DNA from: a virus
Virus record (IMG/VR): IMGVR_UViG_3300044859_002168
Coordinates: 25,854 to 89,853 of that record
DNA: 64,000 bases
Strand: one strand, 5' to 3'
This document shows, piece by piece, positions 3,175 to 27,402 of this stretch (the stretch's first letter is position 1; every line of letters starts with the position of its first letter). The notes below the pieces were generated by a model. It saw only the letters and a program-made list of their open reading frames with translations. It did no database searches and had not been told where the DNA came from. The translations under genes were made by a program, and so were the position numbers.

Positions 3175-3228
3175 GGGACTGACCGAATGACAGTCAATCA
3201 CTCCACCACCTGACATTATGTCAGGAAA

Positions 3229-3522
3229 TTATTTGGTAACTAAAGCTTCCACCTTAGATTTCATATGTTCTGACAAACTAAGTTCACCAACTGTTGGTGT
3301 AACCAAGGAAGTCAAAACAATAGAATCAACCAAATACTTGTAAGGAATGTGAACCAAGAAGTCGGTACCATTGAAGAAATCTAAATCTCCTTTGAGTTCC
3401 AAACAACCGTGAACCATCTTCAAAAACAACTTAAACTGAACACCATCAACAAAGGTTTCATTCAAGAGGGTTCCGAACTTCTCGTTCTCAATCCGAATAT
3501 TGTATGTAAAATTTATTTTCAT
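3229..3522 (-). CDS. hypothetical protein
   Basis: 97 aa ORF; TATATTTG promoter at 3541-3548. Confidence 0.7.
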   Translation of the reverse strand: MKINFTYNIRIENEKFGTLLNETFVDGVQFKLFLKMVHGCLELKGDLDFFNGTDFLVHIPYKYLVDSIVLTSLVTPTVGELSLSEHMKSKVEALVTK

Positions 3523-3569
3523 ATCTGTTGTTTAACACTACAAATATAAAAAGAACTTTCCATATAAAC

Positions 3570-3602
3570 AAAAAAACCCGAAGATTTTTTTCTTCGGGTT
3601 TT
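3570..3602 (-). terminator. intrinsic terminator closing the large ncRNA
   Basis: AAAACCCGAAGA/TCTTCGGGTTTT stem with a T-run on the minus strand. Confidence 0.85.
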
Positions 3603-4525
3603 GGCACTTAGGTTGAGAATACACCTTTGATTGAGAATCTTTAGGAACATTATTGTTTCTTTCCGTTTCCACTATCTTTTGAATAGTAATTCTCAGTGAC
3701 GGTTCCTTAGGGGTACCACTCCTTGAGTTGTAGCTTACTCTCTTTTTACTTATTACTCTCCGAGGTTGCCACCCCAGTGAATCCTTGCGGGATTAGAGAA
3801 CGTTCTCAAGAATCGTGTGGGTCTTGGAAACCCACAACGGCAATGAACATCTCATTACTATGTAGTCACCTTTCACCTACAACTGACGGACACTTTTCCT
3901 TTGTCTTTTAGTATTTGCATACCTATAAAATGCAAAGTTTGTTGTTTGTGGATGGATGAAAGTAGTGGTCCGCCGACCAGCCAAGCCATCTTTTGAACGA
4001 CTCGATACTATACTACTCTCTGAGATATCCCTACCTCAACACTTCAAGACTACTTCGTGACTTATGTCTTGGTAGACAATGGTCAAGGATGATTTCGGCA
4101 CCACCCGTTTGTCATCATACCTTTCGGTTTTAAGTATCCTTTGATATTGAATCCCGCAGTTATAAGGTTGGATTACCCTATTTCCCACAACAATTCTACG
4201 AGTTATTCTTATTGTTCTTCCGAACTCAACCCAACGACCCACATCGCTGAGTCATATTTCCATTTCATCTACAGTGTCACCCTCGATTACTTAGGACTTA
4301 TGATATCCCGCTTGCCTACTCGAGTTAATAAAACCGAAGTTTTAAAAACCGCAATCTCTTTTAAACTTGAGAGACCACTTTATCCCACTTTCGTGGTTTA
4401 TTTATCGACCATAGGCGGCCGATTATCTTTTCTCAGTATTTTCTCAAAATCAACCCAAGGGTCTCATCATCAACATACTGATGGAATAATCAATAATTTA
4501 AAGAACGTTTCAGTTTCCTGATTTG
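3603..4525 (-). ncRNA. large (~920 nt) structured non-coding RNA, probably GOLLD-class
   Basis: No credible ORF; own promoter (4531-4560) and terminator; many hairpins with GAAA, UUCG and GCAA loops; directly downstream of a tRNA in a phage. Family assignment rests on size, context and recollection, not a covariance search. Confidence 0.7.
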
Positions 4526-4530
4526 TTATA

Positions 4531-4560
4531 CAAAGATACAACAGTTTTTCATTCTGTCAA
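4531..4560 (-). promoter_or_regulatory. host-type promoter of the ncRNA
   Basis: TTGACA-N16-TATCTTTG on the minus strand. Confidence 0.8.
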
Positions 4561-4580
4561 GCACCTTCGTGTTTTTTTTG

Positions 4581-4653
4581 TAGCGGGAGAGGGAATCGAA
4601 CCCCCGACCTCAAGGTTATGAGCCTTGCGAGCTACCGCTGCTACTATCCCGCG
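4581..4653 (-). tRNA. tRNA-Met(CAT), initiator (fMet) type; CCA not encoded
   Basis: CGCGGGATAGTAGCAGCGGTAGCTCGCAAGGCTCATAACCTTGAGGTCGGGGGTTCGATTCCCTCTCCCGCTA; C1:U72 mismatch, CAT anticodon, TTCGA T-loop. Confidence 0.95.
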
Positions 4654-4768
4654 ATTTATTTTTAAGAACGTTCCCCGAAAAAAAGTCCCACAACTTATTG
4701 TATTCTCTCGAACACTCGTTGTAGGACTGTGAATTGAGGATTTAACTCCTCTTCTTCCGAGTGTCTCA

Positions 4769-4800
4769 CAAAGATAAAACAATTTTTTCAAATTGTCAAA
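4769..4800 (-). promoter_or_regulatory. host-type promoter upstream of the tRNA
   Basis: TTTGACA...TATCTTTG on the minus strand; a TATTTATA motif also lies at 4851-4858. Confidence 0.75.
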
Positions 4801-4878
4801 AGGGCTAAGTGAAACTTTTTTGTGGGGTGTTTCTACCTTTCGGTGGAGATTATAAATATAGACATACTATTGAAAAGT

Positions 4879-5307
4879 TCAATCTTTTTCAAAAATATTT
4901 TGTAAAATTGTTTTCAAATATACTCCTGTATCCATATTATTGACTTTATCCAAACCAAAATACCCACATTCAGTGTGTTCATGTCCATCTTGAGCGGTTT
5001 CAAGGTTAGGGTACATATACTCATGGGTATTCAACAAATAAACATACATCATACCTTTTATACTACCGTCAGTCTTTTTCTTTTTTGGTAGTATACCCAC
5101 AAAATCTAAATCGTAGTTATCTATGTTAATATCGGTCTCTTCGTAAAACTCTCTGTACGCAGCTTCTTTAGTTGATTCATCTTTTTCAACGTGTCCTGAA
5201 GGAATAGACCACATATTAGGGTAAGATGACTTACCGTTTCTTTTACACAATAAGCATTCACCGTTAACTTTAACGACCACACCACTCAACCTTTTATACT
5301 TTTCCAT
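4879..5307 (-). CDS. Nudix hydrolase
   Basis: Nudix box GHVEKDESTKEAAYREFYEETDI. Confidence 0.9.
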   Translation of the reverse strand: MEKYKRLSGVVVKVNGECLLCKRNGKSSYPNMWSIPSGHVEKDESTKEAAYREFYEETDINIDNYDLDFVGILPKKKKTDGSIKGMMYVYLLNTHEYMYPNLETAQDGHEHTECGYFGLDKVNNMDTGVYLKTILQNIFEKD

Positions 5308-5318
5308 ATTTATAAATA
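5307..5318. promoter_or_regulatory. palindromic TATTTATAAATA, a back-to-back phage promoter motif
   Basis: Perfect 12 bp palindrome occupying most of the 14 bp gap between divergent genes. Confidence 0.6.
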
Positions 5319-5321
5319 ATC

Positions 5322-5672
5322 ATGAAAGTTAAAATAGGCGATAACACCTTTACTGTAAAGGTTATGGACGATTACCGTAAACGTGCTGAAGGTATGATGA
5401 ACAAAACTTTTAACGAATATTTTAACGGTATGTTGTTTCTGATGACCGACCACACCAATTGTTTTTGGATGAAAAATTGTATAATACCTTTAGATATTAT
5501 CTACATTGACAACCAAATCATATCAAAGGTTCACCACAATTGCCCACCATGTGTTGATGAAGACTGTGAGAACTACTGTGGTAGAGGTTATCTTATATTA
5601 GAAGTTGAAGGGGGTACTTGTAAGAATCTTGGTATCAAAAAAGGGGACTCTGTTAAGTTTCTTATTAATTAA
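5322..5672 (+). CDS. DUF192 family protein
   Basis: GMLF...FWMKNCIIPLDIIYID...LEVEGG...GIKKGD. Confidence 0.85.
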   Translation: MKVKIGDNTFTVKVMDDYRKRAEGMMNKTFNEYFNGMLFLMTDHTNCFWMKNCIIPLDIIYIDNQIISKVHHNCPPCVDEDCENYCGRGYLILEVEGGTCKNLGIKKGDSVKFLIN

Positions 5673-7489: not shown

Positions 7490-7861
7490 TTAATATTTGA
7501 GAGTTAATAAATATTTTAATTTGTTAATTGATAACAACATTTCATCTCTAATATTCAATAAATCAGTATCCACTTTTGAATCTAAACCTTCAGTCATAGA
7601 TAATAAAAATTCACAGATACCATCAATGAAATTTTGCATTGATAGTTTATCAATGTCTTGAAACATGATAGAAAATTCTTCAGGGAATTTTGGTCTTCCG
7701 TACTTTCCCATCATACCTTCAACGAAGTCGTCAATTAAATCACCTAATCTATCATATACCTTACCATATGCTTTATGTTTAGCGTCAAACGTAGTTTGCC
7801 AATGTAAAAATCTAAATTGATTTTGAACTTGGACTAATTTTAAAATATATTCTTCTTTCAT
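7490..7861 (-). CDS. ferritin/Dps-like protein (DUF5856-like)
   Basis: HWQT...HKA...Y..L...ID.FVE...G.YGR and C-terminal NIRDEML..INKLKYLLTL. Confidence 0.8.
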   Translation of the reverse strand: MKEEYILKLVQVQNQFRFLHWQTTFDAKHKAYGKVYDRLGDLIDDFVEGMMGKYGRPKFPEEFSIMFQDIDKLSMQNFIDGICEFLLSMTEGLDSKVDTDLLNIRDEMLLSINKLKYLLTLKY

Positions 7862-25758: not shown

Positions 25759-27402
25759 TTAAATTAAAAAATCAAAAAATGAAGATGAATTTCTATCCAT
25801 TTCAAAACCATTATCATCTACCCACTTAAACCCAAAACCATTCTCATTTGGTTTTAATTTATACTGATATGTTTTTGATTTGGTTTCTTTTTTCAAACCC
25901 ATAATAAAAACAAATTTACGGAGGTTTTTGTTTACCATGTCATCCACAAAGTTTAAGGCTTCGTTCCAACACTCATCCAAGTTCTTATTGTATTTTGCCA
26001 AGTATTGAACTCTTTTCATAAGATATTTTCCATGAGTTATTGAAACTTCGTATTCTACCGTAGCCCTTTCATCACCTTTTCTTAATGATAATACAAAAGA
26101 AGATGTTTTATCAACATACCCTCTGACGCAGTTATATTGATGAGAACTCTCCTCATTGAAATCGTCAGTAGTTAATAATACTTTAGGGTGATACTTCTCA
26201 CCGTTAATTTCAAACGATTTGAATTCATTTAAAAATCCATCAGAATAGATTCGTGTGAATTTACCAATAACATAAGATTGTTTCAGTTCAGACAAAAATT
26301 GATGTTCTTGTGAAAAGTCAACAATGTTTTTACTTTCCCATTTTACATCTTCACCAACTTCTTTGAGGTAGTTCAATAATTTGATATGGTCAACAAAGGT
26401 ACTGAAAGATGTCTTACTCCATATAAATTTTTTAAACATATCAAAACACCTTTTCTTTTCACCAATTGACCAGTTAGAAATACTGATATTTGTTTCACTA
26501 CTGCTAATCTGGTGTTGATTATTAAATAATTCCGTTAATAATTCATCGTCCTGATGAATCCATTCGGTACCAAATAAATTTATAGCAATTCTATACCAAC
26601 CCAAATTTACAAATGATATTTTATGTAGAACTTTTTTAACTTTATCACCTTTAAGATTATTACGGAGCATAAAGGCATCCACATACTTCATCTTTGTTTT
26701 CTTAAACTCCTTCATCGTTGGTAGGAAATCAAGTTTTCCGTGACCCGAGGTAAACAAATTTACATTGTTAGGGTATTTTATACCCTTTTTTGTCAGATAA
26801 AAAATATACAACAAATGAATGGGACTGGATGGTAAGAAAGTTCTACTTTCCATATGGGTAATCATTTCATACTTGAATATGTTTAACAAGTAATCAATAT
26901 ATTCATTTCTTTCATCTTTATCTTTAATATAAGGAAAAAAGAAATCCGAAAGAATACCAGGTAAAAAAGAGACTGTTGCATCGTAAAAACAATTTCTTCT
27001 TATATGTTTAGTTCGTTTTATTTTGTTTTGGTAGTTCAATAACTTTCCTTGGTAGAAATCACCTGTAACCAAATTTACAGTAATAAACCACATGTGTTTC
27101 TTTTCCTTAAAATAAGATGTACCCCTTGTTCGGGTTTTGAATTTTTCATACATCTTAATGGATAACTTATCACCCACTCTTTCAATATAAAAAGTCTTCG
27201 TATGACAACTCACACTCGCCATAGGGTCGGCAAAGTGTTTTACATACATCTCCTCGTCGTCATTATATTCTTGAGCCGTTCTGAATAACAGCTTTCCATC
27301 CTTACCATAACGTTTTGACGATATCGGATATGTATTGGATTCTTGGTGTAACCCAACCCAATATGTTTTACGTAAATCTGAAAAAATAACTTTTCTATCC
27401 AT
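25759..27402 (-). CDS. PcfJ-like domain protein
   Basis: C-terminal E.SHQYNCVRGY...LSLR...RATVE...Q...YN; TATCTTTG promoter at 27432-27439. Confidence 0.7.
   Translation of the reverse strand: MDRKVIFSDLRKTYWVGLHQESNTYPISSKRYGKDGKLLFRTAQEYNDDEEMYVKHFADPMASVSCHTKTFYIERVGDKLSIKMYEKFKTRTRGTSYFKEKKHMWFITVNLVTGDFYQGKLLNYQNKIKRTKHIRRNCFYDATVSFLPGILSDFFFPYIKDKDERNEYIDYLLNIFKYEMITHMESRTFLPSSPIHLLYIFYLTKKGIKYPNNVNLFTSGHGKLDFLPTMKEFKKTKMKYVDAFMLRNNLKGDKVKKVLHKISFVNLGWYRIAINLFGTEWIHQDDELLTELFNNQHQISSSETNISISNWSIGEKKRCFDMFKKFIWSKTSFSTFVDHIKLLNYLKEVGEDVKWESKNIVDFSQEHQFLSELKQSYVIGKFTRIYSDGFLNEFKSFEINGEKYHPKVLLTTDDFNEESSHQYNCVRGYVDKTSSFVLSLRKGDERATVEYEVSITHGKYLMKRVQYLAKYNKNLDECWNEALNFVDDMVNKNLRKFVFIMGLKKETKSKTYQYKLKPNENGFGFKWVDDNGFEMDRNSSSFFDFLI

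Follow-up and report, generated by a model that had tools for sequence, protein, structure and literature searches.

A GOLLD RNA gene of an uncultured freshwater phage and its putative ribosomal-RNA-like leader

A 64,000-nucleotide segment of DNA from the IMG/VR virus record IMGVR_UViG_3300044859_002168 (positions 25,854 to 89,853 of that record; hereafter the window, to which coordinates refer unless another record is named) carries on its minus strand, in the stretch 3565-4560, what is very probably the GOLLD RNA gene of an uncultured large freshwater phage. GOLLD RNAs, which Weinberg et al. reportedly treated in 2009, are among the largest non-coding RNAs of bacteria and phages and form an RNA-only cage bigger than the ribosome. 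The locus is a further member of this known family and the element itself is not new, but the stretch provides a clean, abundant and widespread example from lakes, with probable ends for a construct (~4473 to ~3604). Our wider reading, to which we give slightly less than even weight, is that freshwater Bacteroidota phages would make GOLLD in the manner of ribosomal RNA (rRNA), from a promoter of the type found at rRNA (rrn) operons, through a leader whose hairpin and boxA load Nus factors, and by trimming to a cage-building RNA of 870 nt, the gene forming with that of tRNA-Met a 'stable-RNA operon'.

Family membership and conserved structure

Membership of the family is established principally by the Rfam model RF02032 (GOLLD), which matches the minus strand at 3610-4020 with 318.8 bits (E 1.8e-90) against a gathering score of 150 bits, over model positions 1-416 of 416 and without truncation, a result reproduced when the whole virus record was scanned. 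The model spans only the conserved 3' half of GOLLD, and within that half all helices of the 3' domain, including the long-range helix, were aligned, a handful of pairs being non-standard. GOLLD and one tRNA (4581-4653) were the only Rfam families above threshold in the 64-kb window; ROOL gave no match in the window at its gathering score and none in 3300-4900 at E values up to 1. A preliminary description of this DNA, made from its letters alone, had proposed a GOLLD-class RNA and had named the Rfam search, for GOLLD, ROOL and other large RNAs, as a check; the proposal is borne out, and we regard the identity of the RNA as GOLLD as virtually certain. The parts of the RNA to which we refer below are as follows.

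4021-4473, minus strand: 5' domain of GOLLD (counterpart, by analogy, of the env-38 cap domain), with homologues at more than 90 IMG/VR loci and in two megaphages
4378-4399, minus strand: conserved 5'-domain word AAACCACGAAAGTGGGATAAAG with a GAAA tetraloop hairpin (exact pattern scan and covariation)
3610-4020, minus strand: conserved 3' domain of GOLLD (Rfam RF02032 positions 1-416)
3885-3955, minus strand: variable linker (J13/15), unpaired in the Rfam alignment, with a lineage-specific hairpin at 3914-3936 and a GGAAA (3885-3889) complementary to the loop UUUCC (3826-3830)
3762-3793, minus strand: L21a-like hairpin with loop CGCAA (3781-3793) and L21b-like hairpin with loop UGGCAA (3762-3775), from the Rfam alignment
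3611-3625, minus strand: terminal, L27-like hairpin with loop GUAUUCUCA, which includes the second of two UUCUCA tracts, from the Rfam alignment

In GOLLD RNAs a 5' domain of weaker conservation, though structured, brings the length to ~800 nt or beyond. The 5' domain of the window RNA, which lies outside the Rfam model, is widespread among uncultured viruses. Its 22-letter word (4399-4378) was found by exact pattern scan in at least 115 IMG/VR viral contigs, and 93 loci with room for the full RNA align to the window RNA at identities from 99% (L012, L015, L045) through 97% (L077), 85% (L088) and 76% (L034) down to 67%, mostly at 67-73% over 820-1010 nt, the alignments of L002, L003, L043 and L098 being limited to the 5' part. 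Merging at 95% identity or more removed 39 of the 93 loci from the counts as near-duplicates and left 54 representatives, which are the relatives of all counts that follow. BLASTN of 3570-4560 against cultured and deposited phages returned two records, LR756502.1 (642 kb) and LR745206.1 (635 kb), which align over 23-24% of the query and in the 5' domain only, Rfam placing a GOLLD match just downstream at 275 and 287 bits, respectively. Both are uncultured megaphages, and no cultured phage relative appeared in that search; the account in PMC9723777 traces them to a French lake and the Japanese subsurface. One IMG/VR contig, L108 (14,520 nt), bears the 5'-domain word at an identical index on both strands; it is probably a head-to-head inverted duplication and likely an assembly artefact.

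Covariation in the 5' domain, assessed on the alignment of the 54 relatives over about 4459-3970, is extensive. RNAalifold proposed 114 pairs, 87 of them altered on both sides, and in a second run 132 pairs in 23 helices, of which 91 pairs were altered on both sides; 96.2% of cells were paired in this second structure and 80.9% in shuffles, and the covariation score was 0.504 against 0.207, none of 500 shuffles reaching the observed value. The preliminary description had suggested covariation across related phages as a check, and the outcome is strong. It had also pointed to a wealth of hairpins on the minus strand, and these are present: CCAC-GAAA-GTGG (4385-4396), TAAAAC-TTCG-GTTTTA (4329-4344) and ACC-GAAA-GGT (4119-4128), which are helices 3, 6 and 17 of the 132-pair structure, as well as TTTGCAT/ATGCAAA at 3936-3930 and 3920-3914 and GTGGGT/ACCCAC around 3835-3815. 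In the GAAA hairpin of AAACCACGAAAGTGGGATAAAG, alignment pair 87:94 is AU in 43 relatives, UG in ten and UA in one. The 870-nt RNA has a minimum free energy of -250.9 kcal/mol compared with -214.8 ± 5.6 in 20 shuffles (z = -6.5), and since the three hairpins first named also covary in the 54 relatives, the richness in hairpins is more than chance.

The 3' domain, in turn, retains the nucleotides by which a GOLLD cage is held together. Cryo-electron microscopy of the env-38 GOLLD, as presented by Kretsch et al. (2025; PMC12286853), resolves an 833-nt RNA into a cage of D7 symmetry with 14 copies; the same source gives the first finding of that RNA as downstream of a Met-tRNA, identifies a covarying linker:L20 pairing as intermolecular bridge B7, reports a GC/CG switch at bridge B8 and treats L27 as a hub for intramolecular contacts. 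Among the relatives, the pair between the linker flank and L20 is Watson-Crick in 51 of 54 (GC 21, CG 24, AU 6), a figure reached by none of 2000 shuffles, and the adjoining pair is Watson-Crick in all 54; the 3' linker flank is AAG-N and the hairpin that we take as L20 has a loop reading N'-C, where N:N' is the covarying pair, and in the window the pairing can be extended to GGAAA (3889-3885) with UUUCC (3830-3826). Likewise, the L21a-type loops are CGCAA in 36 relatives, GUCGAA in 13, CGGCAG in three and CAUAA in two, the central dinucleotide always being self-complementary, and the loop RUAWUCUCA of the terminal hairpin is kept in 54 of 54. By analogy with env-38, the self-complementary L21a loops fit bridge B8. 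The CAUAA loop of L018 and L020 has AU at its centre, where GC or CG is in print, and this form would be an addition to the published switch.

The likeness to env-38 extends to phage origin, a position directly downstream of tRNA-Met, a separate 5' domain (covarying in the relatives of the window RNA), a variable linker, the linker:L20 kissing pair, the self-complementary L21a loop, L21b and the conserved L27 loop. The differences are the length of the RNA (~870 nt in RNA contigs versus 833 nt), the kissing tract, which is GGAAA:UUUCC in place of the commoner GC:GC core, and the linker, which in the window holds a 7-bp hairpin and no tRNA. The GOLLD of Streptococcus agalactiae, described in a review (PMC12990946) as a 700-nt RNA that forms a dodecamer and is without P21b and several 5' helices, belongs to the same family and has the same 3' domain, but the window RNA possesses a second P21 hairpin in the Rfam alignment, for which reason it resembles the env-38 type. 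ROOL, which according to PMC12286853 forms an octameric RNA-only cage, is likewise a large phage RNA found near tRNAs, but differs from GOLLD in sequence and fold. The intact bridge nucleotides thus predict a cage like that of env-38, and we consider it likely that the RNA forms one, the helices of the two RNAs having been matched by analogy.

The RNA in freshwater metatranscriptomes

Near-identical copies of the stretch are present in 14 DNA runs from 11 studies, whose labels are lake water or simply 'metagenome' (0.92-0.97 of its sampled words), and about half of its words were present in six freshwater RNA runs from four studies. One RNA run from each of these four studies was compared with 3200-5400; the RNA runs had been picked by matching the same stretch, and because contig depths are unfit for ranking genes, coverage alone was used. 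The two features that bear on the comparison are these.

3604-4473, minus strand: GOLLD RNA as it occurs in RNA contigs of four studies, ~870 nt, the probable mature form
3565-3602, minus strand: hairpin and U run resembling an intrinsic terminator (12-pair stem at 3602-3573 with five G-C pairs, then a T run)

A single contig of 890 nt from run X15 spans 3604-4473 with seven differences, and Illumina adapter letters stand directly after 4473. Run X17 yielded contigs at 3621-3799 and 3770-4463, X18 at 3607-4230 and 4232-4404, and X19 at 3603-4325 and 4298-4472, so that the RNA contigs of three studies end at 3603-3607, just before the terminator hairpin, which had already been recognised in the preliminary description and is found where it was placed. 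The flanking genes had zero depth in three of the RNA runs; in X18 the flanks were represented by two contigs, of which one, at 3326-3507, was low (depth 15.5) and the other lay over the tRNA (depth 8.5; five differences in 77 nt). Positions 4474-4578 were uncovered by RNA contigs at a likeness of 90% or more, and the contigs are accordingly uninformative on a joint transcript of tRNA and GOLLD.

That a discrete and abundant RNA is made from the stretch is highly probable. A discrete transcript of ~0.9 kb had been among the things to look for, and RNA contigs from four studies cover 3603-4473 between almost bare flanks, giving at the same time slight indications of its ends and none of its strand. 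Whether the RNA ends at 4473 and ~3604 we judge to be evenly balanced; the adapter letters after 4473 in X15 are what a fixed fragment end would give, and constitute a hint in that direction. If the RNA does run from ~4473 to ~3604, then a leader of ~50 nt and the terminator hairpin are removed. The length of ~920 nt proposed earlier is close, the transcript from promoter to terminator being put at ~955 nt and the RNA contigs suggesting ~870 nt. With the RNA present in the metatranscriptomes of four studies, raw reads could fix both its ends and the time of its synthesis with no need to culture the host.

Promoter, leader and adjoining tRNA

The region upstream of the RNA is organised in an order that is conserved in the relatives and that recalls the leaders of rrn operons. 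In the window it comprises the following elements.

4580-4653, minus strand: tRNA-Met (CAU), called by ARAGORN and by Rfam (tRNA, 50.5 bits, 4581-4653)
4531-4560, minus strand: promoter-like site TTGACA-N16-TATCTTTG, with TATCTTTG at 4531-4538 (10/12 in a consensus scan), a putative promoter
4510-4521, minus strand: leader hairpin UCAG-GAAA-CUGA, boxB-like on reading of the sequence
4497-4507, minus strand: boxA-like word CGTTCTTTAAA, recognised by conservation and by likeness to Bacteroidota rrn leaders, with putative Nus binding

The promoter indicated in the preliminary description holds up in the consensus scan and may be read as TTGACA-N16-TATCTT(TG), the first hexamer starting at 4560 and the second ending at 4533. 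TAnnTTTG is the consensus of the -7 promoter word of Bacteroidota. Of the 54 relatives, 35 have the word in the 160 nt before the GOLLD core, 25 of them with TTG 15-19 nt ahead of it, some upstream segments of the representatives being cut at -180. Over the 180 nt upstream of the core, the conserved order is TTG-N-TAnnTTTG, what appears to be a small hairpin of varying sequence, AAAC and then GTTCTTT(G/A)A. At the site of the leader hairpin relatives show UCGGAAACGUCCGA or UCAGGAAAAGACCUGA, as judged by eye; hairpins of varying sequence thus seem to occupy one place before the boxA-like word, from which eight relatives with short leaders appear to be exempt.

The boxA-like word itself is the most constant part of the leader. 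In 52 of 54 relatives, or 53 if the pattern is relaxed, GTTCTTT[GA]A precedes the core by no more than 180 nt, and it occurs in none of the 54 RNA bodies and none of the 54 antisense controls; it follows TAnnTTTG by 17-31 nt in 31 of the 34 relatives that have both. The pattern CGTTCTTNAA is present five times in the window against 0.58 expected. When genomes were scanned for the relatives' 14-mer AACGTTCTTTGAAA, at least 120 loci were obtained, 49 of those listed having Bacteroidota names in their titles. Five of the 120 listed matches sit 121-181 nt before the start of a 16S gene, four of them in Bacteroidota (Saccharicrinis, a Bacteroidetes bacterium, a Bacteroidia metagenome-assembled genome (MAG) and a Flavobacteriaceae MAG, the fifth being a Bacillota MAG); two of the listed matches stand before tRNAs and 113 beside neither a 16S start nor a tRNA. 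Close variants of the word are carried at -120 to -185 by the rrn leaders of four Bacteroidota genomes, which were reached through the 14-mer loci: GTTCTTTAAGA at -158 in five copies in Sphingobacterium, GTTCATTGACATATTG at -135 in three copies in Kordia and, on visual inspection, GTTCATAGACATATTG in Flavobacterium as well as GTTCATTAAAG in Pedobacter. In Sphingobacterium, Kordia and Flavobacterium the variants follow TAnnTTTG by ~50-100 nt; no promoter was found in the truncated Pedobacter leader.

A bacterial rrn leader, as outlined in PMC4807359 and PMC10250234, consists of promoter, boxB hairpin and boxA, and assembles the Nus antitermination complex. The window leader resembles it in having a promoter-like site, a small hairpin (putatively boxB) and a GTTCTTT(A/G)A word ahead of a long untranslated structured RNA, and differs in being phage-borne, in serving a single-gene unit with no rRNA behind it, and in that the binding of factors to it is putative. 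By sequence, both the word and its position fit the boxA of rRNA operons, at which antitermination depends on Nus, and suggest that GOLLD may be transcribed in the rRNA style, resistant to termination; a Nus-type leader seems to us about as probable as its opposite. In the open-access literature searched, no paper connecting GOLLD with boxA or antitermination was found.

A competing account is that the word GTTCTTTAAA has nothing to do with Nus or boxA and is instead a promoter-proximal or processing signal, or a part of the RNA fold that happens to resemble rrn leaders. The word is short and AT-rich, 115 of the 120 listed genome matches of the 14-mer are unrelated to rRNA, and in eight relatives no more than 42-44 nt separate it from the 5'-domain word, where it abuts the core. 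Because those 115 matches lie away from 16S genes, the word taken alone is weak, and its meaning rests on position and conservation. Here, however, the extended word GTTCTTTGAAAATATTG precedes 16S genes by 121-181 nt, and three of these five occurrences stand behind TAnnTTTG promoters; the close variants in the four Bacteroidota genomes occupy a similar place; no complement of the word was found in the window RNA; and the word is absent from all 54 RNA bodies. This account therefore appears fairly unlikely to us. A second conserved word, UUAUCCAU(C/U)CA(G), stands within 4474-4496 and in relatives between the boxA-like word and the first RNA hairpin; it lies immediately ahead of the apparent 5' terminus (4473) and might serve as a signal for processing.

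The tRNA-Met gene ends 20 nt upstream of the GOLLD promoter, has a promoter-like site of its own in the same form (4799-4771, minus strand) and is preceded by a second copy of the boxA-like word, CGTTCTTAAA (4670-4661, minus strand). Between that promoter and that copy, at 4676-4729 on the minus strand, there is a hairpin with a long loop (AGTCCTACAAC ... GTTGTGGGACT) and a run of seven U behind it; in appearance a terminator or attenuator before tRNA-Met, it was missed in the terminator scan because its loop exceeds 8 nt. Bacterial initiator tRNAs combine the anticodon CAU with a mismatch at 1:72 and an anticodon stem that closes on the loop with three G:C pairs in a row. As aligned by Rfam, the tRNA of the window has CAU, C1 and U72 flagged as non-standard, and an anticodon stem CAAGG/CCUUG with two G:C pairs by the loop and then A:U. 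The earlier label 'tRNA-fMet' therefore stands as regards a tRNA-Met (CAU) with a 1:72 mismatch, but with two of the three expected G:C pairs its formyl-methionine part is unproven.

Association with tRNAs is common in the family without being fixed in its arrangement. Some tRNA is present at 29 of the 54 related loci and none lies inside a GOLLD RNA (0 of 54); on the same strand within 400 nt upstream a tRNA occurs in 11 relatives (tRNA-Met in five) and is absent there in 43, and within ~300 nt downstream one occurs in ten (tRNA-Met in four). In L018, L020, L033 and L091 the tRNA-Met is directly downstream of GOLLD (789-884 nt after the 5' word) and not upstream. The megaphage L002 (LR756502.1) has at 3337-3410, ~10 nt past the GOLLD 3' end, an odd tRNA to which ARAGORN gives a two-letter anticodon, and at ~2370-2395, upstream of GOLLD, a T-arm and acceptor end like those of a tRNA (GGTTCGACCCCG...), for which ARAGORN gave no call.

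From this arrangement arises another possibility, namely that most GOLLD arises when transcription from the tRNA-Met promoter (4771-4799) reads through, and is freed by the enzymes that process tRNA, the site at 4531-4560 not being a working promoter. The terminator scan found no terminator-like site between the tRNA (end 4580) and the GOLLD gene, so read-through from the tRNA is possible; GOLLD adjoins tRNAs, those 11 upstream on the same strand included; and the RNA contigs begin at 4473 rather than at the predicted start of ~4524, so that in both models the 5' end is likely a processed one. What tells against exclusive read-through is that the promoter word is kept in relatives without an upstream tRNA: 43 of 54 lack one within 400 nt, yet 35 of 54 have TAnnTTTG, and the boxA-like word keeps its regular distance in nearly all that have both. 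We accordingly hold this possibility to be rather improbable as the main source of the RNA, noting that read-through and an own promoter are compatible and not mutually exclusive. The 'independent transcription unit' of the preliminary description is thus plausible on account of its own promoter-like site and terminator, with the reservation that transcripts of the tRNA may run into it.

Coding potential, proposed mechanism and genomic setting

Several short open reading frames (ORFs) overlap the GOLLD stretch, the longest of 126 aa at 4141-4521 on the plus strand, and the preliminary description had left room for a new giant RNA class; a class unrelated to GOLLD, or a source of small proteins, is nonetheless barely conceivable, being excluded as regards the class by the full-length Rfam match and opposed as regards proteins by the broken 126-aa frame and the plentiful compensatory changes. 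The 126-aa ORF was considered as a gene and rejected, as its frame is not kept: in L088, at 85% identity, residues 1-62 alone align, and most of the 51 relatives matched have one to four stops in the aligned frame. Codon-level conservation of an overlapping ORF, which had been named as evidence that would count against an RNA gene, is therefore not seen for this frame.

A long-range or intermolecular pairing between two 5' UGAGAA tracts and two 3' UUCUCA tracts had also been suggested. The tracts are present on the minus strand, TGAGAA at 4446-4441 and 4435-4430 and TTCTCA at 3637-3632 and 3619-3614, and they are complementary. In the Rfam alignment, however, the first UUCUCA tract pairs locally, as 3' strand of a helix with GAGAAU at ~3694-3689, and the second forms the terminal hairpin's loop; a 5' TGAGA tract is found in only 13 of 54 relatives (two or more in nine) against 54 of 54 for the loop. 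Since the 3' tracts are thus accounted for by a local helix and a family-wide loop and the 5' tracts are rare, the long-range pairing is rejected.

In the mechanism that we propose, the host RNA polymerase would initiate at ~4524 from TTGACA-N16-TATCTTTG, and the small hairpin of the nascent leader, with its boxA like that of Bacteroidota rRNA, would recruit the Nus antitermination complex, whereby the long untranslated RNA would escape termination by Rho and fold during its synthesis. Transcription would end at the terminator at 3602-3573, trimming of leader and terminator hairpin would leave ~870 nt (4473 to ~3604), and copies of the RNA would self-assemble into a closed cage like the env-38 14-mer. 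The kissing pair of linker flank and L20, the self-complementary L21a, L21b and the L27 loop are all kept. A leader in the rRNA style would offer a testable route to both Rho escape and folding of a long untranslated RNA, and a stable-RNA operon under rRNA-type control would, if true, tie GOLLD to the translation apparatus. That the GOLLD cage acts on this apparatus, on tRNAs or ribosomes, during lytic growth is the likeliest role in our view, although we hold it to be less probable than not.

Several points weigh against the account given here. The RNA contigs prove neither the ends of the RNA, nor its strand, nor its level, and RNA libraries may contain DNA. A contig of a relative in X15 continues past 4477 into a leader with the boxA-like word, from which it follows that removal of the leader is incomplete or not general. 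Most listed matches of the 14-mer, the 115 mentioned above, are not near a 16S start. A window-wide enrichment of TAnnTTTG was tried as evidence for the host and dropped as not significant, with 103 matches against 88 ± 9 expected and nine of 100 shuffles as high. Names such as L20 and L21a were given to helices from their likeness to published descriptions and not from the env-38 sequence. Finally, the alignment used to score the 132-pair structure is also its source, and the comparison with slid controls (37-41% of cells paired) is thereby flattered; the shuffle result and the multiple pair types are independent of that origin.

As to the phage, the virus record comprises 89,853 nt and is rated 30% complete, which would correspond to a genome of roughly 300 kb if the estimate holds; among the matches listed, eight of the 115 contigs carrying the 5'-domain word exceed 200 kb. 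The rrn-type word and the form of the promoter hint at a host among the Bacteroidota. The 'Bacteroidota jumbo phage' of the preliminary description is thus plausible by inference, from a partial record and a leader word that matches Bacteroidota rrn leaders. Neighbouring genes on the minus strand match PHROGs families of a NUDIX hydrolase (4879-5307; 8.4e-22) and a starvation-inducible, Dps-like regulator (7490-7861; 1e-16), and a third (724-1452) has a weak match to endonuclease V / 2OG-Fe(II) oxygenase. Farther along the window, between 15001 and 24000, the G+C content rises to 0.51-0.54 in three blocks, with dips to ~0.40-0.43 between them, and is 0.30-0.35 elsewhere.

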